42,020 bases of DNA from a virus (IMGVR_UViG_3300036852_000372:1-42020), one strand, 5' to 3'. Positions 2,863-42,020 are shown, numbered from the stretch's first letter. The notes: generated by a model from the letters alone, not told the origin. Program-made: numbers and translations.

Positions 2863-2998
2863 ACAACCTCCTAAAAGATGGCGCGGTGCCGATCACCTCC
2901 CCGCGCCGGTAGAGTCTAGGCTGGTTCCCCAACATTGCGGGAGTCTTGATGGCGTCGGGGGCACGCGTTCGGCTACGTGGTATGCTTACCATCAATTC

Positions 2999-3367
2999 TT
3001 ACGCCTTTCGTGCAGAACGTACTTTTCGCCTAGAAATTTCTTTGCCGCCAGCACTTTCTGCTCCATGGCTGGCGACCATGTTCCCATCTTTCTGCTCAAC
3101 CTTCCAGCCGGTAACGGCCTTGACGACTTCCTCAGCCGCCTTATCCATCGCCTTCTGAGTCTCCACCTCAATGTACTTATCCAAGAAGTGGCGAGCCTTT
3201 TCAAGGTCTTGAATTCCACCTTTACCCTTCCATCTTTCCACATATTTGGTGATTTGACCCTGGAAGTAATCGAGTCCCAATCGGGCCACACGGTCCCAAT
3301 GTTCCTCGCCTCCAACTTTGTAGTGGGCTCCACCGACTTGCCTATCATTCGCACCCATATTGGGCAC
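2999..3367 (-). CDS. DUF3310 (SaV-like) family protein
   Basis: QVGGAHYKVGGEEHWDRVARLGLDYFQGQITKYVERWKGKGGIQDLEKARHFL matches the GG.HY...W.....F..GN..KY..R...K....DL.KA..Y pattern. The start is GTG 3367, or ATG 3358 with GGGGTG upstream. Confidence 0.6.
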   Translation of the reverse strand: MPNMGANDRQVGGAHYKVGGEEHWDRVARLGLDYFQGQITKYVERWKGKGGIQDLEKARHFLDKYIEVETQKAMDKAAEEVVKAVTGWKVEQKDGNMVASHGAESAGGKEISRRKVRSARKA

Positions 3368-3382
3368 CCCTGTAGTATACGC

Positions 3383-3889
3383 TTAGAAATTACCCGGAGC
3401 CACTTGAAAACAAGTGTATCCAGCCCTGCGCCACGCATCAACTACGCGCTGGCGATCCTCGAAAATACACAAGACCTTCGCCTTAATGCCGAGCTCTTCT
3501 ACCCAGCGCAGCTTCAACACATCATCTTGTGTCCTGTCTTCAATGCCACGAAGCATTAATTTGTCATAGACTACTCCTTGTTCGTGAAGCCACTTTCTGG
3601 TGACGTCTCTTGTACTTTCGGACCTTCCACTGAGAATGTAAATCTTGTGCCATCGGGCGAGATCGTTACAGACTTTGATGATGTTGGGTTTAGGGAGATC
3701 GTTACCCGCCGCCGCGAAATAGCGATCCCAATCTCGTCTTTTTCCACATCTACAAATCCCTGCTTGGTGGTAAATTTCATCACACCCAATAGCGTGTAGA
3801 GGATGTAAATAGTGTGCTCTGTGTCCGTCATCTGCTAACGTCCCGTCGAGGTCGAAGATGCAGATTTCCTCTCCACCCATTCTAAGCAT
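3383..3889 (-). CDS. HAD-superfamily phosphatase (polynucleotide/nucleotide 3'- or 5'-phosphatase-like)
   Basis: HAD motif I is IFDLDGTLADD. ILSGR(S) is motif II-like and FEDRQRVVDAW is motif III/IV-like. RBS GGAG lies upstream of ATG 3889. Confidence 0.75.
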   Translation of the reverse strand: MLRMGGEEICIFDLDGTLADDGHRAHYLHPLHAIGCDEIYHQAGICRCGKRRDWDRYFAAAGNDLPKPNIIKVCNDLARWHKIYILSGRSESTRDVTRKWLHEQGVVYDKLMLRGIEDRTQDDVLKLRWVEELGIKAKVLCIFEDRQRVVDAWRRAGYTCFQVAPGNF

Positions 3890-4827
3890 GCCTTTCTCCA
3901 GTCAGTTGCCTGTATTTTATTGATAAAGTGCTCATTCTTACTGCCCCCGTCCTTCCGGTGGTACCATGCCAGATACATCGGCACCGCCACCTCGTTCATC
4001 CACCGGGTGCGGTACCGACTCCCGGTTGTGTGGACGAAGTCATAACAGTCCATGAGGAGATCCTTCATCTCCTCTTCCCCAAGAATTAGAAGTGGGTAGG
4101 GAGAAACGACTCCATCTCGGTAAGGGTCCACCGGAGACCTCGTATTGAGCATCTCCTTGATCTTGGGAAGCGCCGTGTAGACGTGTGCGTTATTGGACAT
4201 AACCATGTACGACCCCACCCCAAGACCTGCCCCGTGAGCGATCAATTCTTGAAGAAGAGTCATGTGAACCACATTAGCTCCGAGCATGCCCCAGATGATA
4301 TCGTTGCTTCGGTTGCACACGGTCATGTGAAGCGCATCGGATTCCACACGGAAGTAGATGTGAGTATTGCAAGGAAGATCCCGGTGTGGCTCCAGATCAA
4401 CTCGCGGGTCCCACATCCCCAGTACAGCTCTTCGGGTTGTCCGATCCTTCTTAAGTTGATCAGCAACTGCAACGATTTGATCCACGCCGTTAAAATGATT
4501 AATCCAGCGATGGCCGTAAGCCCCGTGGACAATACCGTCTGGCTCAGCATATTCGTGATACCTCTTGTTGAATTGTGCGATCCACTCCACTTTGTTTGAC
4601 CCACTCATCATCCAGATGAACTCCATCAGATGAAAGAATGGATTCGCATCGCGAATTGGGTCAAAGATCACCCGCTCCCTGGGATCGATGATCTCCAGGA
4701 AGAATGGGTCCAGGAAAGACAGGACTGGCCCATTCCTGCTCTCCTGTTCCTCCCCTTCCAAGCTCAACCGAATCATCACTTCTGGATAGATGCTTGGAAG
4801 ATTCTCCTCGGTCACCTCAATTGCCAT
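3835..4827 (-). CDS. Thymidylate synthase (ThyA) family enzyme; dUMP methylase or hydroxymethylase
   Basis: ThyA landmarks are EFIWMMSGS, YGHRW, DQI..V..QLKKD..TRRAVLGMWD, catalytic LPCNTH, CNRSNDIIWG, GAN (Asn retained, uracil-type) and NAHVY. Confidence 0.85.
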   Translation of the reverse strand: MAIEVTEENLPSIYPEVMIRLSLEGEEQESRNGPVLSFLDPFFLEIIDPRERVIFDPIRDANPFFHLMEFIWMMSGSNKVEWIAQFNKRYHEYAEPDGIVHGAYGHRWINHFNGVDQIVAVADQLKKDRTTRRAVLGMWDPRVDLEPHRDLPCNTHIYFRVESDALHMTVCNRSNDIIWGMLGANVVHMTLLQELIAHGAGLGVGSYMVMSNNAHVYTALPKIKEMLNTRSPVDPYRDGVVSPYPLLILGEEEMKDLLMDCYDFVHTTGSRYRTRWMNEVAVPMYLAWYHRKDGGSKNEHFINKIQATDWRKACLEWVERKSASSTSTGR

Positions 4828-4994
4828 TAGATTTTCTCCTCAAAGGCCTTAAAATCCTTTAATTTCTCCTTGAATAATGTAAGATCATATTGACTCACAG
4901 TGGATAACTTCTTCCACCCCCACCATGTCTTGATATAGACTTTATAGTAGAGATAATCCCTGTTGAAAACAGGTATGAATTTAAAGTCCTGCAT
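4827..4994 (-). CDS. Unlisted 55-aa ORF (MQDFKFIPVFNRDYLYYKVYIKTWWGWKK...FEEKI)
   Basis: Found by hand translation because it falls below the track cutoff. ATG 4994 has AAGAGG upstream. Its TAA shares one base with the ThyA-homologue ATG (TAATG), and it fills an otherwise empty 150-nt gap. Confidence 0.45.
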   Translation of the reverse strand: MQDFKFIPVFNRDYLYYKVYIKTWWGWKKLSTVSQYDLTLFKEKLKDFKAFEEKI

Positions 4995-5844
4995 AATTCC
5001 TCTTTGATTTTCCGGTACCTGTCGTCACCCGGCAGTATTTGTCAAATTCGCACAGACAGTTCTGGAGGTCCTGGTTGTCCACCGGAGTTACTCCCGGAGG
5101 CCAGTGCTGATCAACCCATGTGCGAAGGTTGTTGAAGTAATGCATGAAATTTGATTCTGTGACCCCCTTTGGTCCACCTGAAAAGATCCAACTTAATCCA
5201 CGGAGACTGCCCGGCCCCGGAGTGACGAAGAAGGGTTTGTCAAACGCCTTGCTCAAAGGGTGCCCCGGAGTGTTCTTTAAGTCAGCTACAATCTGCCCAG
5301 CCAGAAAACTTCCGACTCCCTCGATCTCCTGCAGAGCCTCGGCGGCTAGGGTGCAGCTACCGCCCCGGGCTGGGTGCCCCGGCCGCTCGAGGGCTCGGAA
5401 TGCAGCGCCGAGCACGTTATCACACAGGTACCGGGCCTTGGGCATAGGTATGCCATGAGTCGTGATAACGTAGGCTCCACCCCAGACTTTTAACCCGTCG
5501 GTCGCTCGCTGCTCGAGATACTCTAGCAGTTCGTCCGGATTATGATCTTCTAAGTACCCGCAATCTTCTAGAGTCGCTACATTATTAATGAAGCGACTAA
5601 AGATGATATTATACTCAAACATACGATCACCAACGCGACGTGAATAAAACGATCGAATCCATCGCGTAACTTTGTCGTCTTCCCGGTGTACGTTACAGAA
5701 GTACGTCTTCTGGAATATGGGGTCGGAAGTCCAAGGTTTATCACGATTAGCTTCCTTCTTTATCCGGATTGACTCCCGTTCTGCCACCCAATACATAAGC
5801 AGATCCTGCGGCGTATAATCTCTTCCATTGGCATGTATAATCAT
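4981..5844 (-). CDS. aGPT-Pplase / 5-HMUDK-helical-domain-like DNA base hypermodification protein (HhH glycosylase-related)
   Basis: YWVAERESIRIKKEANRDKPWTSDPIFQKTYFCNVHREDDKVTRWI, the HhH-like GVGSFLAGQIVADLK, and LCEFDKYCRVTTGTGKSKRNY. This is recalled family resemblance and was not searched. RBS GAGGA precedes ATG 5844. Confidence 0.6.
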   Translation of the reverse strand: MIIHANGRDYTPQDLLMYWVAERESIRIKKEANRDKPWTSDPIFQKTYFCNVHREDDKVTRWIRSFYSRRVGDRMFEYNIIFSRFINNVATLEDCGYLEDHNPDELLEYLEQRATDGLKVWGGAYVITTHGIPMPKARYLCDNVLGAAFRALERPGHPARGGSCTLAAEALQEIEGVGSFLAGQIVADLKNTPGHPLSKAFDKPFFVTPGPGSLRGLSWIFSGGPKGVTESNFMHYFNNLRTWVDQHWPPGVTPVDNQDLQNCLCEFDKYCRVTTGTGKSKRNYAGL

Positions 5845-6583
5845 AGCGTACCCCGTCCTCATTTGCTAGCCACTTATCTTTTGTATTCCGCGCGACGACC
5901 TTGACGTAATCAGGGAAGCGAGCAGATAGATACTCAACCGCCTTCGTTTGCATGTCGCTTGTGCGATAGATTGAGCAACCTCCCGGGGCTTGGCAAGGCC
6001 CATGGTCTTGGAAATGGGTTGTGATAATCTTGTTTCCCTGCCCACGTGCCAAGAGTGTACAATTGAGTACCACGTCAGCCAGAATTGGAAATTGATCCAC
6101 TTTAACTTTTCCAATTAACCTCCTGTTAATTCCTTGGATGCAGATAATTCTACCGTTGTCAACGTACGGGGGCTTCGTGTTCTGCCCCATCTGTCTGGGG
6201 TGGACTCCGACCAGTGCTGTGTCTTCGAGGAGCTCTTCCATGTAATCGAAGAGTACCCCAGTTTCTTCAACATCTTCGATAGTTCTAAGACTTGGTCTTC
6301 CATCGACGAGTACTCGTCTGGAAAAGACAAGATCATCGTCAAGAATGCAGGCTTTTTCATTTGTATCATAGCCCCCAAACGCAGATGGGAATCCGTCTAG
6401 GATGTATTGGAATTTTTCACTGTAGTTAGTAATTCGTTCTGGCACAGCATACGTTTGATGTACATGCTGTATAGCTTCTTCAGCTGGACAGACCAGCCAC
6501 GTTTTATCTTTCCACCGTTGGGGCAGACGCCCCAACGTATACTGTCTTCCGACGCGTCCACGAGTCATAATATACAGGTTCAT
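5747..6583 (-). CDS. GT-A-like nucleotide-sugar transferase fold candidate (function uncertain)
   Basis: ATG 6583 with GGAGG upstream; the track start at 6625 lies inside a terminator. The first strand is NLYIMTRGR and the acidic ILDDDLVF sits about 90 aa in, like a DxD motif. There is no Walker A motif. Confidence 0.4.
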   Translation of the reverse strand: MNLYIMTRGRVGRQYTLGRLPQRWKDKTWLVCPAEEAIQHVHQTYAVPERITNYSEKFQYILDGFPSAFGGYDTNEKACILDDDLVFSRRVLVDGRPSLRTIEDVEETGVLFDYMEELLEDTALVGVHPRQMGQNTKPPYVDNGRIICIQGINRRLIGKVKVDQFPILADVVLNCTLLARGQGNKIITTHFQDHGPCQAPGGCSIYRTSDMQTKAVEYLSARFPDYVKVVARNTKDKWLANEDGVRYDYTCQWKRLYAAGSAYVLGGRTGVNPDKEGS

Positions 6584-6592
6584 AACCCTCCT

Positions 6593-6618
6593 AAAAATCC
6601 GGGGCCGTGAGGCCCCGG
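6593..6618 (-). terminator. Rho-independent terminator (leftward)
   Basis: On the minus strand, CCGGGGCC-TCAC-GGCCCCGG is followed by ATTTTT. It lies between the stop of 6622..6813 and the RBS of 6583. Confidence 0.7.
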
Positions 6619-6621
6619 TCG

Positions 6622-6813
6622 TCAATATCGCCGGCCAGACCGGCGGACCTCGGCTCTCGCTAACATTTTCAGGAATTCATTCCTTGCATCATCTTTAGCA
6701 GTGCGTTCTGGGGGTGCCGTTCCAAGAGTATCTTTGATATTGAGTATATCGTAACCTTTGTAGTCACTACTCATTATCAGATCATCTTTGGATGGTGCAT
6801 CCCAGAAGCTCAC
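6622..6813 (-). CDS. Hypothetical protein (63 aa)
   Basis: ATGA start/stop coupling with the upstream gene. No recognisable motif. Confidence 0.6.
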   Translation of the reverse strand: MSFWDAPSKDDLIMSSDYKGYDILNIKDTLGTAPPERTAKDDARNEFLKMLARAEVRRSGRRY

Positions 6814-7994: not shown

Positions 7995-9431
7995 CTACGC
8001 CTCGGGGTTATTGTTAAAGTCATTAATCGCCATCAGGAGGTCTTGCTGAAGTCGATCTTTAGACGACAAGACTTTGACAACTTTTTCGTCGTAAGTATCC
8101 TTTGCAACGAGATGATAGACGACCACGTGATCACTCTTTTGCCCCTGCCGGTAGACTCGCGCAATCGCTTGGTCATAATGCTCTAAGTTCCAGGTTATGC
8201 CGTACCAGATTATATGATGACAACTTCCCTGAAGATTGAGACCGTGGCCCATAGAAGCAGGATGCCCCATGAGCACAGGAATCCTCCCGCTATTAAAAGC
8301 GTCAATCGTACTAGCCAAACGGGCTCCTGTCTGCCCTTTAAGATCGATAATAGACCTAAAGCGATCGGCGATACGCTGACGATCGTGATCAAACTCATAA
8401 AGAACCAAGACGGGATGTCCATTTAGTTCCTCCAGAAGCCCTTCCAGGGCTTCAAGCTTTTCATCGTGAAGAGCTACCCATGCTGTGTCTTCTTTGTAGA
8501 CGGCCCCGTTTGCCACCTGACGGCACTTCCCGCTCGCTACGGCTGAGTTTGCCGCTACGATCTCTCCGTCTTTTATCTTGCAGATAAACTCTTCCTGGAG
8601 GGACTTGTACATCGTCATTACGGAAGGAGGCAAAGACACTGAAATCGTCCGGTAGTCTAGCGCGGGCATTCGCAGATATTCTTCTGCTGACAACTGGAGT
8701 AAAAGTGGGGAGATTCGTTCTACGATTCTTGGGAATGCGTCCTTCTGTGGAGTCCAATCGTACAGATTTCGGCCTTGCACGAAGAACTCTCTGCGATAGT
8801 GTGTAATGAAACGACCTAAGGATCTCCCTAAGTCCAGGATGAACATCTGCCCAAAGAGATCTAATAATCCGTTTGGTGCTGGAGTACCCGTGAGAATCCA
8901 ACGTCTCTTGAAGCAAGGAAGAAATGGCTTCAACAGCTTGAATCTCTGCGTCTGTGAATCTTTGAATTTTGAGCTTTCGTCGATTATGAGGACGTCGTAC
9001 GGATTCCCGTGAGTCGTCATATGTGTGATTAACCACTTCAACCCCTCCGGATTTATAAGATGGATCTGTGCATCACTCGCAAGCGTTGCTTCCTTCTGAC
9101 CCCCGTGGAGAATCCCGTAGGTCATCTCCTTGAACTCTTCCCACTTCTGGATTTCCCCCGGCCAAACGGAGTACATTGGTCTTAAAGGTGCTACGATCAG
9201 ACATTTCCGAATTAAAGATTTTTGGAACAGTATTTTCAGTGCTGCCAGACAAATTGACGTCTTCCCCAGACCCGGGTCCAAGAACAGACCCGCTGCGGCT
9301 TGGGAAAGTAGCAACCGAATCGCTCGGGTCTGGTAGTCGTGCGGGTTCCACAGCGGCTTTGAGGATGTTGATTCCTTCAACGGTGTTATCTGTCCAGGCT
9401 GCTGGGATGCCTCGTTTTCTAAGCTGGTCAA
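7995..9431 (-). CDS. SNF2/Rad54-family helicase
   Basis: PHDYQTRAI (Q motif), LDPGLGKT (motif I), LIIDESSKFK (DExx, motif II), ILTGTP (III), and a C-terminal HPASMGHGLNLQ...QAIARVYRQGQ (V/VI). TTG start at 9431 with AGGAG 7 nt upstream. Confidence 0.9.
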   Translation of the reverse strand: MTSLENEASQQPGQITPLKESTSSKPLWNPHDYQTRAIRLLLSQAAAGLFLDPGLGKTSICLAALKILFQKSLIRKCLIVAPLRPMYSVWPGEIQKWEEFKEMTYGILHGGQKEATLASDAQIHLINPEGLKWLITHMTTHGNPYDVLIIDESSKFKDSQTQRFKLLKPFLPCFKRRWILTGTPAPNGLLDLFGQMFILDLGRSLGRFITHYRREFFVQGRNLYDWTPQKDAFPRIVERISPLLLQLSAEEYLRMPALDYRTISVSLPPSVMTMYKSLQEEFICKIKDGEIVAANSAVASGKCRQVANGAVYKEDTAWVALHDEKLEALEGLLEELNGHPVLVLYEFDHDRQRIADRFRSIIDLKGQTGARLASTIDAFNSGRIPVLMGHPASMGHGLNLQGSCHHIIWYGITWNLEHYDQAIARVYRQGQKSDHVVVYHLVAKDTYDEKVVKVLSSKDRLQQDLLMAINDFNNNPEA

Positions 9432-9624
9432 GACGAAACTCCTGTAGAGGATCGGGCTTATATCCCGGTCGTTTGAACTCTATGAAAATGGTGTGGCCGA
9501 TAGGACTTATGAATAGTCGGTCGGGCCAACCTGCTTCGGAGAACTTAACCTTCGGGGCTAGGAAGCCGTGCTTCAACGCCCAATTCACCACCACTTGCTC
9601 TATATCTTTCTCTAAACCGCTCAT
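9073..9624 (-). CDS. VRR-NUC domain nuclease whose frame stays open about 95 codons past the domain
   Basis: MSGLEKDIEQVVVNWALKHGF...GWPDRLFISPIGHTIFIEFKRPG...LQEFRLDQLRKRG is the VRR-NUC pattern (E...PD...E.K...Q). RBS GGAGA. The stop comes only at 9073, 359 nt inside SNF2. Confidence 0.75.
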   Translation of the reverse strand: MSGLEKDIEQVVVNWALKHGFLAPKVKFSEAGWPDRLFISPIGHTIFIEFKRPGYKPDPLQEFRLDQLRKRGIPAAWTDNTVEGINILKAAVEPARLPDPSDSVATFPSRSGSVLGPGSGEDVNLSGSTENTVPKIFNSEMSDRSTFKTNVLRLAGGNPEVGRVQGDDLRDSPRGSEGSNACE

Positions 9625-9745
9625 CTTCTGTCTCCAGGTATTTGATGGCACGATCTAAGATCGCATTTACTTCCCACGACTTCGGTACTCTAGCTCCTGT
9701 GTAGATGCTAGCCCTTAGAGCTTTAAGCTCGTCTAAAACTTGCAT
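9545..9745 (-). CDS. Hypothetical protein (66 aa)
   Basis: ATG 9745 (MQVLDELKALRA...). It overlaps the VRR-NUC start by 80 nt. Confidence 0.45.
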   Translation of the reverse strand: MQVLDELKALRASIYTGARVPKSWEVNAILDRAIKYLETEDERFRERYRASGGELGVEARLPSPEG

Positions 9746-26174: not shown

Positions 26175-26397
26175 CATTCCGGAGTTTGTATCCCCTGTTG
26201 ATGGCTCAGTCATCACAGGGCGTGCGGCGCTGCGTGAACACAACAAACGTCACAATGTGACGAATGTCGCTGACTTCACGAATCAGTGGGCGAATCAGGC
26301 AAAGGAACGGGAAAGAATGTATTCCGGCGACAAGGGCTTTGATGCCAAGCGCCGGAAAGATGCGATTATTCGGGCAGTCAACAAACACTGGAGATGA
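26167..26397 (+). CDS. Small head-module protein (76 aa)
   Basis: ATG 26167 overlaps the portal stop. Sequence MPDIPEFVSPVDGSVITGRAALREHNKRHNV.... Confidence 0.6.
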   Translation: MPDIPEFVSPVDGSVITGRAALREHNKRHNVTNVADFTNQWANQAKERERMYSGDKGFDAKRRKDAIIRAVNKHWR

Positions 26398-27527
26398 AAA
26401 TGGATCGCCGACAAGCATTAGAAGAAGCCTTCGACAAACTGGAGTCGGATGACGATGATGTCGTCACAACGGAGGTTCCTGCAAATGAGACTCACGAAGA
26501 AGGAACTCAAGGCGTTGAGGGAGAAGGGAAATCGGAACCGGGTGCAGAAGCGCCTCAAGGCGTGGAGGCAGGAAAGAGCGGAAAGAAAGAGGAAAAAGTT
26601 CCATCCGCTGAACCCGCTGCAGATGGAAAGAAAGGCGCTCAAAAGACTGAGAAAACGGATGATGCTCTTAACCGAGCTGCGCAGGCTGCTGCGGGAAATC
26701 AGCCCGAGGTCGGAAAAGCCCCTGTGTCTTGGAAACCCGCCGCGAAAGCCGCTTGGGACAAGCTTCCGGTGGACGTGAGACAGGATGTTCTGCGCCGGGA
26801 ACAAGAAATTAATAAGTACATCTCCCAGAATGACCATCACCGTAAATTCACTGAAGGGTTTGGGAATGTCGTGCGACCCTTTATGCCACTGATACAGGCT
26901 CAGGGATCCACACCGCTTCAGGCCGTACGGAACATGATGGTCACAGCGGCGGGGCTTACGACCGGTTCGGAAGAGCAGAAAGCTCGTATTGTCGCTGAAA
27001 TCATCGGCAACTACAAGGTGAGCGTCGAAGTTCTGGATAAGATTCTGTCTGATGGTGGGGTTCCTGCCAGTCGTGGGAACGCGTCAATCGATCCTACTAT
27101 CATGCAGGCACTTCAGCCAGTCTACGGCTTTATGAATGAAGTTCAGCAGGCCCGTGAGGCCAAAAGACAGAGACAGGTCGCTGAGGCAGAGTCGCTCATT
27201 GAACAGAACGCGGACAAGCCGTTCTTTGATGATCTGTCAGACGATATGGCGGATATCATGGAAATTGCTGCGAAGCGTGGACAGGAACTTACTCTCGATC
27301 AGGCATATGAAAAAGCACTTGCCCTCAACCCGGAAATTTCGAAGATCGTCGCCCAGCAGAAGGCTGCTGAAGAAGCCCGCGCAAATGGAGGCACCCGTCT
27401 TGCGAAAGCCAGACGAGCTTCTTCAACTCTTACTGGAGCCCCTTCAGGATCCCCGGACGGAAAGGGCAAAGCAACGACTCGGCGCGAGGCATTAGAGGCT
27501 GCGTGGGATGAACACGCGACGCATTAA
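26394..27527 (+). CDS. Scaffolding protein
   Basis: It lies between the portal and capsid genes. It has an acidic/Lys-rich low-complexity N-half and a helical C-half. The start is ATG 26394 or 26400. Confidence 0.7.
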   Translation: MKMDRRQALEEAFDKLESDDDDVVTTEVPANETHEEGTQGVEGEGKSEPGAEAPQGVEAGKSGKKEEKVPSAEPAADGKKGAQKTEKTDDALNRAAQAAAGNQPEVGKAPVSWKPAAKAAWDKLPVDVRQDVLRREQEINKYISQNDHHRKFTEGFGNVVRPFMPLIQAQGSTPLQAVRNMMVTAAGLTTGSEEQKARIVAEIIGNYKVSVEVLDKILSDGGVPASRGNASIDPTIMQALQPVYGFMNEVQQAREAKRQRQVAEAESLIEQNADKPFFDDLSDDMADIMEIAAKRGQELTLDQAYEKALALNPEISKIVAQQKAAEEARANGGTRLAKARRASSTLTGAPSGSPDGKGKATTRREALEAAWDEHATH

Positions 27528-27673: not shown

Positions 27674-28636
27674 GTGGCATTTCCAAATGTCTCAGACTTG
27701 GTCGCAACCACAATTGAATCGCGTAGCGGTGAAATTGCGGACAACGTGACCAAGAACAACGCGCTGCTCAGCAAGCTGAAGCAGCGTGGAAACATTCGGA
27801 CGTTCTCGGGCGGAACCCTGATTTTTGAGGAGCTCAGCTTCGCAGAAAACGGTAACGCCGGGTACTATTCCGGATACGATCTCCTGCCCGTCGCGGCGCA
27901 GGACGTACTGAGCGCTGCTCAGTATGCAATCAAACAGGCGGCGGTTCCCGTCGTCATGTCCGGCCTGGAGATGCTCCAGAACGCCGGAAAAGAGAAGATC
28001 ATCGATCTGATGGACGGCCGCATGGCCGTCGCCGAAGCTTCTCTCGCCAACCTGCTTGCCTCGGGTATCTACTCGGACGGCACGGGCTCTGGTGGCAAGG
28101 AAATCACCGGCCTCAACGCTGCGGTCCCGGTCAATCCGGCGACTGGAACGTATGGTGGTATCGATCGTGCGACGTGGACCTTCTGGGCCTCGAAGATCAA
28201 CAATACCTCGGGCATCGTGGCTTCCACGATCCAAGGTGCATTGAACACTCTTTGGGCGCAGCTCATCCGCGGCAGCGATCGTCCGGACTTCCTGGTCTCG
28301 GACAATACGGTCTGGGCTCTTTACATGGCGTCTCTCCAGGCGCAGCAGCGTTTCGTGGATGTGAGCACTGGAAACCTCGGTTTCCCGAGCATCAAGTACA
28401 TGGACGCGGACTACATCCTGGACGGCGGCATCGGTGGCTTCTGCCCAGCAGGAACTCTGTTCATGCTGAACACGAAGTACATCTTCTGGCGCCCGCACCG
28501 CGATCGCAACATGGTCCCACTCAGCCCGAACAAGCGTTACGCGGTCAATCAGGACGCGGAAGTGCAGATTCTCGGCTGGGCTGGGAACCTCACCACGTCG
28601 GGCGCCCAGTTCCAGGGCCGCTTTGACAACAACTAA
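27674..28636 (+). CDS. Major capsid protein (HK97-fold expected)
   Basis: GTG start with AGGAGG 9 nt upstream. It is 320 aa and follows the scaffold gene. The GTYGGIDRATWTFW type motif is common in podovirus capsid proteins. Confidence 0.8.
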   Translation: MAFPNVSDLVATTIESRSGEIADNVTKNNALLSKLKQRGNIRTFSGGTLIFEELSFAENGNAGYYSGYDLLPVAAQDVLSAAQYAIKQAAVPVVMSGLEMLQNAGKEKIIDLMDGRMAVAEASLANLLASGIYSDGTGSGGKEITGLNAAVPVNPATGTYGGIDRATWTFWASKINNTSGIVASTIQGALNTLWAQLIRGSDRPDFLVSDNTVWALYMASLQAQQRFVDVSTGNLGFPSIKYMDADYILDGGIGGFCPAGTLFMLNTKYIFWRPHRDRNMVPLSPNKRYAVNQDAEVQILGWAGNLTTSGAQFQGRFDNN

Positions 28637-28648
28637 GGAGTAGCGAAA

Positions 28649-29218
28649 ATGGTATCTCTCGCAATGGCTACTCCTGTCATCGGCGCCAACGTGAACAACG
28701 TGGACACCGGCACGACCACCAATGGTGAAAATGCCAAGTTCCAGTTGGGCACAAAGATCCAGGGGCCGGATGGCAACGAGTACATGTACGTTCAGGCAGC
28801 GGAAGCGATCACGACTGCGATCACGAGTCCCAATGCCGTAGCGATTGACGAGGACTTCCAGGCGTCTCTCATGACGACTGCGCTTGCCCTCAACAACTAC
28901 GAGCTGGGTTTCGCTCCGATTGGGTCGGGTATTGCGCTCATTCCGGACAACGCGTTCTTCTGGGCGCGTGTGAATGGTGCAACGTTCAATGCGCGAGTCG
29001 CAGCTTCGGCTGCGGCAGACACGTATCTGCGAACGACCATCACTGCCGGTCGTCTCGGTACGGCCTCCACGGCTTCCGCTGTGGTGTTCTACGGTGTCGT
29101 GATCGTCGCGGCGGCTTCTGCCTCCACGTCGGCCAACAACACCATCCGAGAAGTGCTGATGACCAAGGGCCGCGCGATCCGTCAGGGTCAGCCGGTCGCT
29201 GCTGGCTTCGTCAACTAA
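28649..29218 (+). CDS. Putative capsid decoration/cement protein
   Basis: AAGGAG RBS. It is 189 aa, lies immediately after the capsid gene, and is followed by a strong terminator. It is Ala/Ser/Thr-rich. The function is inferred from position. Confidence 0.5.
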   Translation: MVSLAMATPVIGANVNNVDTGTTTNGENAKFQLGTKIQGPDGNEYMYVQAAEAITTAITSPNAVAIDEDFQASLMTTALALNNYELGFAPIGSGIALIPDNAFFWARVNGATFNARVAASAAADTYLRTTITAGRLGTASTASAVVFYGVVIVAAASASTSANNTIREVLMTKGRAIRQGQPVAAGFVN

Positions 29219-29243
29219 TGGTTGGCGAGTCACAAGAGAAGGT

Positions 29244-29277
29244 GGAGGGGCTCCAAACCGGAGCCCCTCCTTTGGGG
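29244..29277 (+). terminator. Rho-independent terminator after the capsid/decoration genes
   Basis: Perfect 11-bp stem GGAGGGGCTCC/GGAGCCCCTCC followed by TTTGGGG. Confidence 0.7.
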
Positions 29278-29292
29278 CTCCTCCAACTGGAG

Positions 29293-30573
29293 ATGAAGGT
29301 AAATGTCAGCGACGGACAGTTGCTGAAAAACCTCAACTACGTTAAGGAGCTTGGCGTCCCAGCGATTCAGCTGATGGAGCCAAACAAGAAAACTCTCGCA
29401 ATCTGCGGAAGTGGCCCGTCATTACGAAATACGTGCAACATCATTCCTAATGATGCAGATATCATGGCTCTTAACGGGGCTTATCGTTTTCTGCGTAAGA
29501 AGGGAAAGACTCCGACGTATTTCGCAATGCTGGACTCTCGTGAAGTCAACGTAAATCTTCTGGAAGAGCTGAATACCGAAACGACTTATCTGCTGGCCTC
29601 ACAGTGCCACCCGAAAGTCTTTGATCGTCTTTGCTCAAATGAGTTTGTGGTGGGAACTTTTCACCTCGGTACCCCCACTACGAGGTCCGTATTCCCAGAC
29701 CAGGACCTCTATGTTGGCGGTGGGGGCACGATAGGCCTTACTGCTATCGCTTTGGCGGTGGCTCTGGGCTATCGGTCTGTGATCCTGTACGGCATGGACT
29801 CATCCTTCGATGGTGACAAGAAACATGTGATTCACCAGCCGCAGAATGATGGTGAAGAGATTATCCCCGTGTGGGTAGATGATCGTAAATACATGACCAG
29901 CATGGCGATGGCTGATCAAGTCATGCAGTTCTTCCCTTTCCACAAGGCTTTGAGGGAGGCGTACCCAGATGTCACGATTGATATCATTGGTGATGGCCTC
30001 TTTTATGATTTTGTTGTCACCAACAATAATCCAAGCTCCCGAGATCGTGAACTCGCCAAGTACGTGGATGCTTACAAAGAAGACAACTACGGGATGTCTC
30101 TTGAGAGAGCAAAAGGTCTGGCGGCGCTGTTATCTCGTATTCCATTCAACGGGTCGTATCTGGACGTCTCATGCGGCCGTGCAGAGAGTCTGAATCTCGC
30201 CCGTCAACTCGGTTTCGGCACCGTGCAGGGAACGGAGACAGTGGAAGCACTGTGTGGACCCAACGTGGTTCATGCGGTGCTCCCTACTATTCCTTTCGCG
30301 GATAAGTCGTTTGACACCGTGTCTTTAATCGAGGTCATCGAGCACTTAGTTCCTGATGACATTGTTCCGACGCTCAATGAACTGACACGTCTGGCGCGTC
30401 ACCACATTCTCATTTCCGCGGCCATCTACGAACATTGGATCGCTGGTGTCAACTTGCATCCGTCGGCCATGCCGGTGGAAAAGTGGGAAGAAATCTTCAA
30501 GTCTGTCTGGGGCGATAACGTCTATCGTGTCGGTAGCCTTGGGAGCTCGCCATGCTGGCGCGTGGACTTATAA
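29293..30573 (+). CDS. Fusion protein: MptE/Maf-like (PF01973, ex-DUF115) domain plus class I SAM-dependent methyltransferase
   Basis: The N-half carries LAICGSGPSL, ADIMALNGAY, PTYFAMLDSRE and GGGGTIGLTAIALAVALGYRSVILYGMDSSF. The C-half carries YLDVSCGRAESL (motif I) and FDTVSLIEVIEHL. The start is taken after the terminator. Confidence 0.7.
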   Translation: MKVNVSDGQLLKNLNYVKELGVPAIQLMEPNKKTLAICGSGPSLRNTCNIIPNDADIMALNGAYRFLRKKGKTPTYFAMLDSREVNVNLLEELNTETTYLLASQCHPKVFDRLCSNEFVVGTFHLGTPTTRSVFPDQDLYVGGGGTIGLTAIALAVALGYRSVILYGMDSSFDGDKKHVIHQPQNDGEEIIPVWVDDRKYMTSMAMADQVMQFFPFHKALREAYPDVTIDIIGDGLFYDFVVTNNNPSSRDRELAKYVDAYKEDNYGMSLERAKGLAALLSRIPFNGSYLDVSCGRAESLNLARQLGFGTVQGTETVEALCGPNVVHAVLPTIPFADKSFDTVSLIEVIEHLVPDDIVPTLNELTRLARHHILISAAIYEHWIAGVNLHPSAMPVEKWEEIFKSVWGDNVYRVGSLGSSPCWRVDL

Positions 30574-31226
30574 AGGGAACGATCTGCTGCGTTCTTAAGA
30601 GTGGTGGTGACTTCACCCCTGCGCACGTCGCATGGCTGAAGCAGATGTGCCATGAAAAGATGCCTGATTGGGATTTCTGCTGCTGGTCGGATATGGACGT
30701 TCCGGGCCGCATCCCATTGAAGATGAATCTCCCCAAATGGTGGTCCAAGATGGAGATCTACCGGACCGAATTCGGTGGCCCGGCTCTCGTAATCGATCTG
30801 GACACCGTTTTCCTGAAAGAATTCACAATTAGGCCTGAACATGAAGATGAAATGCTGGTTATTCGCTGCCCTTGGAAGAACGGGTTCCGATCACCGGAAC
30901 GTCTTGCTGGTGGATTCATGTATCTGCCTTCCTGGGCCCGCGCGCAGATCTGGCAAGCGTGGCGTCTGGCGGGCGAAGATACCATTGGACTATACGACGA
31001 CAATGACCAGATATTTCTGCACAAGTACTTCGCCGATAAGGCACTCCGTATTCAGGACCACTACATTGATGAGGTAGTGTCCTACAAAGTTCACGTTCTC
31101 GGGATAGGTTTACAATCCGAGAATAAGGTGGTATATTTCCACGGTGAACCTCGTCCCTGGAATGTAGATCTACCCTGGATTCCGAAATGCTCGCACCCGG
31201 ATCAGTCTTCAGCTCAGGCCGCGTAG
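30552..31226 (+). CDS. GT-A-like glycosyltransferase
   Basis: RBS GGGAG. ICCVLKSGGDFTPAHVAWL, the DxD motif in ALVIDLDTVF, and ...VVYFHGEPRPW. Confidence 0.55.
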   Translation: MLARGLIKGTICCVLKSGGDFTPAHVAWLKQMCHEKMPDWDFCCWSDMDVPGRIPLKMNLPKWWSKMEIYRTEFGGPALVIDLDTVFLKEFTIRPEHEDEMLVIRCPWKNGFRSPERLAGGFMYLPSWARAQIWQAWRLAGEDTIGLYDDNDQIFLHKYFADKALRIQDHYIDEVVSYKVHVLGIGLQSENKVVYFHGEPRPWNVDLPWIPKCSHPDQSSAQAA

Positions 31227-40323: not shown

Positions 40324-42020
40324 ATGCCTCGTAACAGTAGCGGAACATACAGCCTCCCGGCAGGCAATCCGGTCGTAACCGGGACAACGATTAGCACCGT
40401 CTGGGCTAATACGACCCTGTCCGATATCGGAACCGCCATGACTGACTCCCTCAGTCGGTCTGGGGATGGTGGTATGCTCGCTCCTCTGGAGTTGGTGGCT
40501 GGCGCGATCGGCGCCCCCGCGCTGACGTGGGGTGCGGAAACTACCTCTGGACTTTATCGAGCTGGAGCAGGGGACTTCAGATTTGCAATAGCTGGAGTAG
40601 ATGTTTGGTCCGTAGGTTCTTCTGGTTCTTATTCCCTTCGAATTCTTGCAGGGGATGGAACTGTAGCTGCTCCTGGAATTGCGTTTAATTCAGATCAAGA
40701 TACTGGGTTCTACCGCATAGGGGCAAATGAACTTCGCATGGCCGTCGGCGGCGCTGCGATGGCCATATTTAGTTCTGCAGTTGCTCAATTCAATGCAACA
40801 CAGACTTTAGTCGGAGATGGTCTGGTTGGTACTCCGGGTATCTCTTTCTCTAATGATCCAGATACGGGCATATATCGTATCGGAGCAAATGAACTTCGTA
40901 TTGCGGTTGGTGGGGCCGCGATGGTTGTCCTCAATTCCTCCGTAGCACAGTTTAATTCGTCACAAGTTCTCGTTAATGACGGTCTCGTAGGAACTCCCGG
41001 ACTTTCATTCTTCAATGATCCGGATACGGGCATGTATCGTCCAGGAGCGGACACCATTCGTTTCGCCACGGGAGGAGTCCTGCGCCTCGACATGTCCTCT
41101 GGAGGATTCAAACCCACGACTGTGATCCTTCCCACGGTGGATGGAGCTGTGGGCGCCCCCCTGTATTCGTTTGATAATGACCCGGATACCGGCATCTACC
41201 GCCCCGGAGCAGATGAAATTCGTATTGCGACGGGGGGTGTACTCCGTCTGGCGTTGTCTTCTGGAGGGTTAAAGTCGGCCGTCGTAAACTTACCTTTGAT
41301 TGACGGTACAGCGGGAGCTCCGGTTTACTCATTTGACAATGACTCCAACACTGGAGTATTCCGTGCTGGTGCCGATGATATGAGCTTCAGCGCCGGTGGC
41401 ACGACTCGTATGTCTGTCAACGGCACATCAGTCATTGTCAACACGGTACCATTTCACGTTCAGGATGGATCAGTCGGTGCTGCGTCTGTTTCTTTCTTCA
41501 ATGATCCCGATACGGGCCTCTATCGTCTGAACGCGAATGAGCTACGAATCACCACTGGTGGTTCGGCGATGATGATTGTTTCTTCTGCCGCAACCCAGAC
41601 AAATTCAACGCAATTCTTAACTGGCGACGGGGCTGTCGGAACTCCTTCTCACTCGTTTGCAAATGATCCTGACACTGGCTTTTTCCGTGATACGGCCAAT
41701 CAGATCGCCATCGCACTTGCGGGGGCTGCGGCTGGGCAGATAGCGCAGGGTAGCTTCACGATGACCCTTACTGGATTCACGGCTGCCCCAACTCCTTCTG
41801 CAACATGGCAGCGAATTGGAAATCTAGTTATAATCAGAGTGCCACAATTCGCCTCAACAAGTAATGGTGTAGGATTTACCTGCACGAATATTCCTGCTAT
41901 TATCCAGCCATCCACACCAACCTATGCTTGGATCGGCTCAGGCCAGGATAACAGTGTTCAGTCCAATACGGTTAGCTGTTTAATCAACGGTGCAACTATG
42001 ACTTTCCAAATTGGAAATGG
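40324..42020 (+). CDS. Tail fibre protein (N-terminal 565 aa; continues at 1..209)
   Basis: AAGGTG RBS. The N-terminus SGTYSLPAGNPVVTGTTISTVWANTTLSDIGTAMTDSLSRSGDGGM is a common phage tail-fibre anchor motif. No stop occurs before the window end. Hand-translated in full. Confidence 0.85.
   Translation, partial: MPRNSSGTYSLPAGNPVVTGTTISTVWANTTLSDIGTAMTDSLSRSGDGGMLAPLELVAGAIGAPALTWGAETTSGLYRAGAGDFRFAIAGVDVWSVGSSGSYSLRILAGDGTVAAPGIAFNSDQDTGFYRIGANELRMAVGGAAMAIFSSAVAQFNATQTLVGDGLVGTPGISFSNDPDTGIYRIGANELRIAVGGAAMVVLNSSVAQFNSSQVLVNDGLVGTPGLSFFNDPDTGMYRPGADTIRFATGGVLRLDMSSGGFKPTTVILPTVDGAVGAPLYSFDNDPDTGIYRPGADEIRIATGGVLRLALSSGGLKSAVVNLPLIDGTAGAPVYSFDNDSNTGVFRAGADDMSFSAGGTTRMSVNGTSVIVNTVPFHVQDGSVGAASVSFFNDPDTGLYRLNANELRITTGGSAMMIVSSAATQTNSTQFLTGDGAVGTPSHSFANDPDTGFFRDTANQIAIALAGAAAGQIAQGSFTMTLTGFTAAPTPSATWQRIGNLVIIRVPQFASTSNGVGFTCTNIPAIIQPSTPTYAWIGSGQDNSVQSNTVSCLINGATMTFQIGN
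40498..41751 (+). repeat. Eight in-frame tandem repeats (about 50-55 aa each) inside the tail fibre
   Basis: The recurring block is (G)DG.VG.P..SF.NDPDTG.YR.GA.E.R...GG.......S. It recurs at approximately aa 59, 110, 164, 218, 272, 325, 380 and 433. Confidence 0.85.
41894..42020. repeat. Second copy of the 127-bp terminal redundancy (identical to 1..127)
   Basis: Exact identity, read base by base. Confidence 0.95.

Follow-up and report, generated by a model that had tools for sequence, protein, structure and literature searches.

Hypermodified thymidines are known from phages such as M6, whose DNA carries a modification derived from 5-hydroxymethyl-2′-deoxyuridine (5-hmdU; PMC8989533). The pathway that proceeds through a 5-hmdU DNA kinase (Pfam HMUDK_HMUD1), which makes 5-PmdU, and an amino acid:DNA transferase (AADT) is well characterized (PMC5889632, PMC8989533, PMC11472151, PMC13458397), and the dUMP hydroxymethylase of phage SH-Ab 15599 has been used in its reconstitution (PMC13458397). 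A related set of genes occurs in HTVC023P-type pelagiphages, in which a thymidylate synthase (TS) and aG/PT-PPlase1 are encoded near PolA, sometimes together with a 5′-deoxynucleotidase as well as a beta-glucosyl-HMC-alpha-glucosyltransferase, and a broadened hypermodification was suggested for these phages (Wittmers et al. 2022, PMC9599517). Phage glycosyltransferases (GTs) of the GT-A fold are also known to glycosylate hydroxymethylpyrimidines in DNA and to resemble the trypanosome enzyme JGT; about 20,000 contigs with such enzymes have been mined, many of which carry the gene beside ThyS or 5mYOX genes (Pyle et al., bioRxiv 10.1101/2023.12.21.572611), and a 2026 paper on T-dioxygenases ties phage hydroxymethyluracil (hmU) to GTs. 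Here we analysed a stretch of viral DNA of 42,020 nucleotides (IMGVR_UViG_3300036852_000372:1-42020; the whole stretch is called the window), in which a minus-strand cassette of about 3.6 kb (2999..6583) encodes a GT, a helix-hairpin-helix (HhH) protein of the aGPT-Pplase superfamily, a ThyA homologue, a HAD phosphatase and a DUF3310 protein. We found that in a survey of related cassettes the position next to the HhH gene holds either a GT or a 5-hmdU DNA kinase and never both. We propose, with a probability of roughly 0.55, that the window encodes a kinase-less variant of thymidine hypermodification in which 5-hmdU takes the place of T before replication and a sugar is then O-linked to it on DNA, yielding a base that resembles base J.

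The cassette shares with the M6/YuA/PaMx11/ViI/PhiW-14-type pathway a dUMP hydroxymethylase (40% identity) and an aGPT-Pplase protein of clade 1 (about 29%), as well as the local order of clade-1 gene, hydroxymethylase, nucleotide hydrolase and DUF3310 near PolA. It differs from that pathway in that the window genome is without genes for the P-loop 5-hmdU kinase, the clade-2 transferase, the pyridoxal-phosphate (PLP) enzyme, the radical-SAM enzyme and Nmad5, has a TAGT-type GT at the kinase site and has a HAD phosphatase in place of the HD hydrolase. The HTVC023P-type phages have the same combination of gene families near PolA and are tailed phages of similar size, but they belong to another lineage, and the paper that describes them contains no analysis of kinase absence, of specificity residues or of slot exclusivity (PMC9599517). 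An earlier account of the window, made from its sequence alone (the sequence-only reading), had suggested that the chemistry of the cluster may differ from the described pathways. Its novelty was overstated there, as the gene combination was already present in HTVC023P-type phages (PMC9599517) and GT-A/ThyS neighbourhoods had already been mined (bioRxiv 10.1101/2023.12.21.572611). Because the combination had been seen before, we do not count the window as a discovery in itself. The main new result is the alternation of GT and kinase in a single slot.

The first 127 bases of the window recur as an exact direct repeat at its end (1-127 and 41894-42020), and on the basis of this terminal overlap the window is a complete phage genome of 41,893 bp, circular or terminally redundant. 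Claims of absence concerning the kinase and the transferase can therefore be tested. A six-frame scan of the complete genome for Walker-A motifs picked out the terminase and the VapE primase-helicase; its sole further match, in an unannotated ORF among the head genes (26343..27527), is apparently due to chance. Searches of the genome by tblastn with the kinase, clade-2 transferase, Nmad5, PLP, radical-SAM and HD proteins of M6 and Sonora found nothing. We also ran profile hidden Markov models (HMMs) for the 5-hmdU DNA kinase (5-HMUDK; built from 25 sequences), the clade-2 AADT (built from 9), Nmad5, HD, PLP and radical-SAM proteins against every ORF of at least 40 aa with all filters off (--max), and these returned noise only. 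The absence of a 5-hmdU DNA kinase and of a clade-2 transferase is robust at profile sensitivity. The remark in the sequence-only reading that no Walker-A kinase lies in or near the cluster thus holds for the whole genome. The only member of the aGPT-Pplase superfamily in the genome is the clade-1 protein, a Pfam scan of 39 window ORFs found no TET/JBP domain, and the window has no sugar-nucleotide genes.

At the nucleotide level, positions 2900-6700 matched none of 50,697 phage records, and protein-level searches were therefore used. Searching for related loci with a single clade-1 sequence returned nothing, whereas an alignment query succeeded. We scanned all ORFs of 80 IMG/VR loci with clade-1 homologues, 72 of which are non-redundant, with ad hoc profile HMMs. 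The consensus cassette begins with a variable position, which we call slot X, and continues with the clade-1 gene, the hydroxymethylase (at about +0.9 kb), an HD or HAD gene (about +1.9 kb) and DUF3310 (about +2.4 kb). Slot X contained only a TAGT-type GT in 43 of the 72 non-redundant loci and only a P-loop 5-hmdU DNA kinase in 19, all of these kinases having an N-terminal GxxGSGK[TS] motif; the remaining 10 had other occupants. No locus contained both a GT and a kinase, against about 11 expected under independence, and neither a kinase nor a clade-2 transferase was present in any GT-type locus surveyed. The same two alternatives were seen in six contigs of metagenome-assembled genomes (MAGs). 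In a crude neighbour-joining distance tree (no support values), the clade-1 proteins associated with GTs and those associated with kinases interleave, suggesting repeated exchange of the slot occupant. Of the chemistries considered in the sequence-only reading, these comparative data favour the transfer of a sugar onto 5-hmdU, as the TAGT-type GT and the 5-hmdU DNA kinase share the slot and never occur together.

The ten other occupants of slot X were heterogeneous. They included one divergent TAGT protein, one weak GT4 match and one radical-SAM protein, with a second radical-SAM gene lying one gene further upstream (the radical-SAM genes are in or just upstream of slot X in L074 and L087), and in L043, L054, L057, L060, L070, L087 and L092 the slot held proteins of 300-380 aa with no Pfam or PHROG match. 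Four of the other proteins were compared with TAGT GTs by hhalign, and none was similar. The unmatched and radical-SAM proteins may represent further tailoring chemistries. Among the kinase-type loci, a clade-2 gene was seen in only 5 of 19 in the stretch examined; the other 14 (L040, L046, L048, L049, L062, L068, L075, L078, L079, L082, L084, L085, L093 and L095) have a kinase and a clade-1 gene there without clade 2. Either the clade-2 gene of these phages lies elsewhere or clade 1 carries out the transfer.

The block of GT, clade-1, hydroxymethylase, HAD and DUF3310 genes is kept in four related loci (L005-L008; 42-79% protein identity) and, without the HAD gene, in a fifth (L010). Two unrelated cultured phages, LuckyBarnes and phiRSL1, likewise combine a TAGT-type GT with a clade-1 protein and a ThyA homologue. 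In Brevibacterium phage LuckyBarnes the order is ThyA–GT–GT–clade-1. In the Ralstonia jumbo phage phiRSL1 (L014, 161-172 kb), a single leftward block encodes an adenosine 5′-phosphosulfate (APS) kinase, three TAGT-type GTs, an NDP-sugar (nucleoside diphosphate sugar) pyrophosphorylase, a nucleotidyltransferase, a galactose-3-O-sulfotransferase-like protein, the clade-1 protein and the ThyA homologue, a gene content suggesting that the 5-hmdU of this cultured phage carries a sulfated oligosaccharide.

The ThyA homologue of the window (3835..4827, minus strand) matches Thymidylat_synt (E 2e-24) and phrog_5131 (E 6e-92) and is 40% identical to M6 gp58 over 97% of its length. According to a published residue rule (Lee et al. 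2026, PMC13326640), enzymes with Asn at position 177 act on uracil and those with Asp on cytosine, a bulky Leu143 goes with a methyl product and an acidic residue with a hydroxymethyl product, and D169N is found in 5-hydroxy-dCMP synthases. In E. coli numbering, the window protein has Asp143, Cys146, Asn147, Asp169 and Asn177. The catalytic Cys in LPCNTH aligns with E. coli Cys146 and the P-C motif is present; RDLPC supplies Asp143 and RSND supplies Asp169, not the D169N form. The Asn in GAN, which the sequence-only reading had placed at the position that discriminates dUMP from dCMP, does align with TS Asn177, and with the Asp of MilA. The E. coli ThyA sequence in this alignment is one that we take to be the reference, and its length and its residues 143, 146, 169 and 177 fit the published numbering. 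The same signature residues are found in M6 gp58 and in the SH-Ab 15599 dUMP hydroxymethylase, and we predict that the window protein is a dUMP 5-hydroxymethyltransferase that makes 5-hmdUMP. In LuckyBarnes, the ThyA homologue gp41 (L002 4436-5989) is 517 aa long with about 190 extra residues near the C terminus, and it keeps Asp143, Cys146 and Asn177.

Another account would be that the ThyA homologue is an ordinary TS, or a cytosine-specific hydroxymethyl or hydroxy enzyme, surrounded by unrelated genes of nucleotide metabolism and repair. Pfam and the PHROGs do label the protein a thymidylate synthase, and its best PDB sequence match is the CMP hydroxymethylase MilA. However, MilA and the dCMP enzymes have Asp at the position of Asn177, Asp143 and Asp169 are kept as in M6 gp58 and SH-Ab 15599, and all NCBIfam thymidylate-synthase equivalogs score far under their cut-offs, so that we consider this account highly improbable. 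Plain thymidylate synthase activity, which the sequence-only reading had raised as an outcome that would overturn it, is at the level of sequence contradicted by the signature and by the NCBIfam scores, and the signature residues led us to reject the assignments as plain TS, dCMP hydroxymethylase and 5-hydroxy-dCMP synthase.

The GT (5747..6583, minus strand) matches phrog_842, 'beta-glucosyl-HMC-alpha-glucosyltransferase' (E 1.7e-24). Although its longest ORF extends as far as a TTG at 6625, the consensus of the homologues begins MNLYIM, which places the start at the ATG at 6583, where it had been put originally. PDB sequence searches with the GT and with the clade-1 protein gave no useful match, and fold searches were therefore used for both. 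The AlphaFold model of the GT (pLDDT 92) returned GT-A folds from the PDB with Foldseek (POMGnT1, TarP and GnT-I, E down to 3e-5), in agreement with the initial GT-A-like assignment. In BFVD, the best named matches were TAGT-domain proteins of phiRSL1 and a T-even-type beta-glucosyl-HMC-alpha-glucosyltransferase (E 1e-14 to 2.5e-18, TM 0.66-0.70), and two unnamed viral proteins scored higher (E to 4e-25, TM 0.79). The E values of the named TAGT-domain neighbours there range from 1e-11 to 2.5e-18. Residues R22, G23, R24 and D96-D97-D98 are invariant in the homologue alignment; for the third published motif (EDY/F), QDH at residues 206-208 is a candidate. The Pfam TAGT profile is matched by 28 of 45 close homologues of the GT (best E 9e-9), although the GT scores under the cut-off of this profile. 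We place the protein, by family resemblance, among GT-A enzymes of the TAGT/phage DNA-glycosyltransferase family and predict that it glycosylates 5-hmdU in DNA.

The likenesses of this enzyme to three described systems bear on that prediction. With the phage GT-A DNA glycosyltransferases that accompany 5mYOX/TET or ThyS (PMC8256090; bioRxiv 10.1101/2023.12.21.572611; PMC13229309), it shares the GT-A fold, the N-terminal Arg and the DDD motif, as well as a position beside an enzyme that makes a hydroxymethylpyrimidine; both TarP-like and JGT-like structural neighbours were reported there, and TarP was found here. The proven cases use 5-hydroxymethylcytosine (5hmC) formed after replication, whereas here 5-hmdU is predicted to be formed before replication through the ThyA homologue, and the cassette includes a clade-1 gene. 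The base J that trypanosomatids make with JBP1/2 and JGT would belong to the same class of product, an O-glycosylated 5-hydroxymethyluracil formed by a GT-A enzyme on DNA, but its hmU arises by dioxygenase oxidation of T in DNA, whereas the window would use a nucleotide-level hydroxymethylase. The glucosylation of hydroxymethylcytosine (hmC) in T-even phages (gp42 dCMP hydroxymethylase with alpha- and beta-GTs, and the beta-glucosyl-HMC-alpha-glucosyltransferase of T2/T6) follows the same logic of pre-replicative synthesis by a ThyA homologue, manipulation of the nucleotide pool and sugar transfer on DNA, and the window GT belongs with the beta-glucosyl-HMC-alpha-GT type in phrog_842 and is structurally similar to it. 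The window ThyA homologue is uracil-specific by residue (Asn177), whereas the T-even enzyme is cytosine-specific (Asp). The T4 alpha- and beta-GTs are GT-B enzymes, and we know of no aGPT-Pplase-type gene in T-even phages.

The GT could also act on something other than DNA, such as a protein, a teichoic-acid-like polymer or a glycan of the host surface, in which case the cassette would yield unglycosylated 5-hmdU, possibly handled by the clade-1 protein. This would fit the nearest solved GT-A structures, POMGnT1 and TarP, which act on proteins or teichoic acid, the score of the GT below the TAGT cut-off, and the presence of a second glycosylation module by the capsid gene. That module lies on the plus strand (27674-31226) and consists of the major head protein gene (27674-28636), a 189-aa ORF, an MptE-like/methyltransferase fusion gene (29218-30573) and a second GT (30552-31226; phrog_1962), so that the MptE-like gene is 0.6 kb downstream of the major head protein gene with one small ORF between them. 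The MptE-like protein matches the PseD flagellin-modification protein, a sialyltransferase-like PHROG and the sugar methyltransferase MftM; together with the second GT it probably forms a module for glycosylation and sugar methylation of a virion protein. The sequence-only reading had offered it as an activator of the 5-hmdU leaving group, a role that does not suit a PseD/Maf-like and sugar-methyltransferase fusion in a capsid module. Its family matches and capsid-adjacent position likewise speak against a DNA-base pyrophosphokinase. The cassette GT is placed differently: in 43 of 72 loci, as well as in three cultured or MAG lineages that are unrelated, it adjoins the clade-1 gene, usually upstream, and lies within about 2 kb of the hydroxymethylase. 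It never occurs together with the DNA kinase, and the viral proteins nearest to it in structure are of the TAGT and T-even DNA glucosyltransferase types. For these reasons we think it very unlikely that the cassette GT has a non-DNA target.

The HhH protein encoded between the GT and the ThyA homologue (4981..5862 or 4981..5844, minus strand; candidate starts are the ATGs at 5862, 5844 and 5796) matches HMUDK_hel (PF18723) with 122.3 bits (cut-off 25; E 3e-35) over profile positions 5-277 of 281, and phrog_2396 with E 4.5e-40. The description of this protein as aGPT-Pplase-like was right in that it is a genuine member of the superfamily, but it is of the clade-1, or HMUDK_hel, type and is not one of the characterized clade-2 transferases; the profile check that the sequence-only reading proposed for 4981..5844 gave a full-length match far above cut-off. 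Together with the dUMP-hydroxymethylase signature of the ThyA homologue, this bears out the view of the locus as a thymidine-hypermodification-type cluster. The protein is about 29% identical to M6 gp55 (ORF055), and its homologues include Sonora gp42, PhiW-14 gp72, ViI gp160, SH-Ab 15599 Orf49 and LuckyBarnes gp38. Clade 1, reportedly named as a family in 2013, comprises 4,281 representative clusters at 50% identity in a library of 1.84 billion proteins. Among the best 150 of these 4,281 clusters, we looked for clade-1 proteins fused to a GT or a kinase, and almost all stood alone, with a length of about 280 aa or as shorter fragments. Two representatives, P0378 (578 aa) and P0384 (461 aa), have C-terminal extensions of about 290 and about 175 residues. 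Clade-1 homologues also occur in two large MAG contigs: one from Terriglobia (L100, 1.16 Mb) has no cassette partners nearby, and the copy in an alphaproteobacterial contig (L102, 0.98 Mb) is split and probably decayed.

The AlphaFold model of the clade-1 protein (pLDDT 91.7) is all-helical and has an HhH-glycosylase-like fold related to the solved clade-2 enzyme. The top Foldseek match in the PDB is 8z2m, the 5-PmdU glycinyltransferase gp46 of PaMx11 (a weak match, E 0.03, probability 0.91), followed by the glycosylases Ogg, AlkA and MutY. In the alignment, Cys271 of the window protein corresponds to the residue that serves clade 2 as covalent nucleophile (PUGT Cys247) and is invariant in 13 clade-1 and clade-2 sequences; Glu272 and Lys275 are invariant within clade 1, whose C-terminal motif is C-E-x-[DS]-K-[YM] (LCEFDKY in the window protein). 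Across lineages that are 24-55% identical, 21 residues of clade 1 are invariant, including Cys271, Glu272 and Lys275, and we therefore argue that the protein is an enzyme and not a scaffold. Most likely it flips a 5-substituted uracil out of the DNA, with Cys271 attacking C6. The clade-2 metal ligands Glu243/Thr244 correspond to Gln267/Asn268 in the window protein. These positions were tried as a marker of GT versus kinase partners and rejected, since Gln-Asn is also found in the kinase-bearing phages Pam3 and Bustleton, and phiRSL1 shares Ser-Asn with PhiW-14.

One alternative is that the clade-1 protein acts as a base-flipping DNA-binding partner that presents 5-hmdU to the slot-X enzyme, with glycosylated 5-hmdU still as the final base. 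Such a role would be consistent with the HhH glycosylase-like fold, with the clade-1 gene adjoining the slot-X gene in the same orientation in nearly all loci and with the fusion of a clade-1 domain to the kinase in SP10 gp186, from which the Pfam name derives (PMC5889632). It would also be consistent with the finding that M6 gp55 is not needed for the kinase and glycine-transfer reactions in vitro (PMC8989533). However, the 21 invariant residues, among them the clade-2 nucleophile Cys and the adjacent Glu and Lys, exceed what a scaffold needs, a base held in the clade-1 pocket would be inaccessible to a partner enzyme, and a GT occurs without a clade-1 gene in the examined part of MW202897. 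We regard this role as possible but unlikely.

Another alternative is that the clade-1 protein consumes the product of the slot-X enzyme: Cys271 would attack C6, the O-linked group would leave and the methylene would be reduced or captured by a nucleophile, so that part or all of the 5-hmdU would end as thymine or as an adduct. Clade-2 enzymes have been proven to use this Cys chemistry, and borohydride then gives thymidine (PMC8989533; PMC11472151), and in PhiW-14 the remaining hmU is turned into T at the DNA level by a mechanism that has not been explained (PMC5977210). PhiW-14, ViI, M6 and SP10 all carry a clade-1 protein, the 14 of 19 kinase-type cassettes described above are without clade 2 in the stretch examined, and the order of slot X followed by clade 1, like the SP10 fusion, suggests consecutive steps. 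Against this, a glycoside is a far poorer leaving group than a phosphate, no reductant-binding domain is evident, the clade-2 metal-ligand positions are Gln267/Asn268 (although these do not track the type of partner), and the scheme is wholly inferential. We find it doubtful. The same holds, in our estimation, for its more general form, in which clade 1 would be a universal second-step enzyme that attacks C6 of 5-hmdU carrying any O-linked group (phosphate, sugar or other), expels the group and resolves the methylene. Thymine would then be one outcome, supplying the missing hmU-to-T step of PhiW-14 and SP10-type phages, and the sugar in the window would be a transient activator instead of, or besides, the final modification.

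Two further proteins of the cassette may act on the nucleotide pool, as the sequence-only reading had supposed, and the comparisons make such a role plausible. The HAD protein (3383..3889, minus strand; HAD_PNKP, E 2.5e-25) matches Pnkp1 and the phosphatase domain of T4 PNK among PDB sequences. It is a stand-alone phosphatase of the PNKP type, which may serve the deoxynucleotide pool, for example by removing dTMP; as an alternative it could be a 3′-end phosphatase. In the closest relatives the HAD gene is likewise present, at about +1.9 kb. M6, Pam3, MW202897 and the majority of metagenomic cassettes instead have an HD/YfbR-like 5′-deoxynucleotidase there, and SH-Ab 15599 has an enzyme proven to be a dTTPase/dUTPase. 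The DUF3310 protein (2999..3367, minus strand) matches PF11753 (E 1.6e-5) and several 'nucleotide kinase' PHROGs, and DUF3310 lies downstream of the hydroxymethylase in 80 of the 97 sources surveyed. T7 gp1.7, which is annotated as a nucleotide kinase, carries DUF3310 as its C-terminal domain (residues 122-184, E 4.5e-23), but the window protein (122 aa, against 196 aa for gp1.7) shows no similarity to it outside the domain (BLASTP E 0.1). We know of no P-loop in T7 gp1.7. By analogy with gp1.7, the DUF3310 protein may have a nucleotide-level role, possibly the phosphorylation of 5-hmdUMP. The 55-aa ORF between the clade-1 and ThyA genes (4827..4994, minus strand) has no Pfam or PHROG match and no homologue at the same position in the relatives, where unrelated small ORFs or nothing fill that gap. 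We therefore excluded it from the system, rejecting it as a conserved member of the pathway; it is probably a variable filler gene.

We propose that these proteins would act in the following order. The ThyA homologue would hydroxymethylate dUMP to 5-hmdUMP, as its signature residues and homology suggest. The DUF3310 protein, the HAD phosphatase and host kinases could then enrich the pool in 5-hmdUTP at the expense of dTTP, a step to which gene position and distant homology point, and the phage family-A polymerase would put 5-hmdU in place of T. After replication, the TAGT-type GT would move a sugar from a host NDP-sugar onto the 5-hydroxymethyl oxygen, giving a base-J-like 5-(glycosyloxymethyl)uracil that would shield the DNA from host nucleases; we infer this step because of the family membership of the GT and because it fills the slot of the 5-hmdU DNA kinase in sister cassettes. 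The clade-1 protein, as a conserved core enzyme, would flip the 5-substituted uracil for attack on C6 by Cys271.

Several observations weigh against glycosylated 5-hmdU as the predicted product. The proposal gives the clade-1 enzyme no defined step. In MW202897, of which 10.7 kb was examined, a GT and a hydroxymethylase are found with no clade-1 gene beside them, and clade 1 may therefore not be required for glycosylation. The window GT scores only 14.7 bits against the Pfam TAGT profile (PF20691), for which the cut-off is 27.5. A dCMP deaminase, a dUTPase and a dTTPase were not found in the genome, so that exclusion of dTTP rests on the HAD phosphatase, the nearest solved relatives of which are polynucleotide 3′-phosphatases. 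In the survey, many of the loci are truncated contigs, the HMMs and the tree are ad hoc, and the loci are related to one another and not independent.

The six minus-strand ORFs of the cassette were confirmed at the coordinates given above, packed head to tail and overlapping or abutting, as had been described from the sequence alone; the quoted motifs LYIMTRGR, ILDDDLVF, GVGSFLAGQIVADLK, LCEFDKYCR, LPCNTH, RSNDIIWG, GAN, NAHVY and FDLDGT are all present in the translations. The GT and HhH genes overlap by about 100 nt, the HhH gene and the 55-aa ORF by 14 nt and the ThyA and HAD genes by about 50 nt, and the 55-aa ORF and the ThyA gene share one base. A terminator-like hairpin on the minus strand (6599..6618; a pattern match with 8 G-C pairs, a 4-nt loop and the tail ATTTTT) sits between the stop of an upstream 63-aa ORF and the GT start codon, and may mark the edge of a separately regulated transcription unit for the cassette. 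Elsewhere, the genome encodes PolA, the VapE primase-helicase, an SNF2 helicase, a PD-(D/E)XK nuclease, the terminase, the portal and the major head protein. PolA is 39% identical to that of Stenotrophomonas phage AXL3, the closest cultured relative by this protein, and only 26-27% identical to those of the HTVC023P types; AXL3 was dropped as a model phage, as its genome is without the cassette despite this similarity. The SNF2-type helicase ORF (7995-9431, minus strand) overlaps by about 360 nt with an ORF that has a weak VRR-NUC match (9073-9651, minus strand). The helicase probably begins downstream of the TTG given as its start, and the public gene call is 376 aa.

Within a literature search of incomplete coverage, we found no paper that measured glycosylated 5-hmdU made by the ThyA route, none that assigned a function to clade 1 and none that reported the alternation of GT and kinase in one slot. 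With more than 4,000 clusters at 50% identity in the clade-1 family, the small and complete kinase-less cassette of the window (about 3.6 kb) lends itself well to testing what clade 1 does. If our proposal of glycosylated 5-hmdU is true, it would bear on how phage DNA resists restriction enzymes and type IV nucleases, and on the sequencing and enzymatic tools with which hmU is handled. It would also mean that bacterial viruses have a route to a base-J-like base that uses neither a dioxygenase nor a 5-hmdU DNA kinase, and thus a new class of tailoring.

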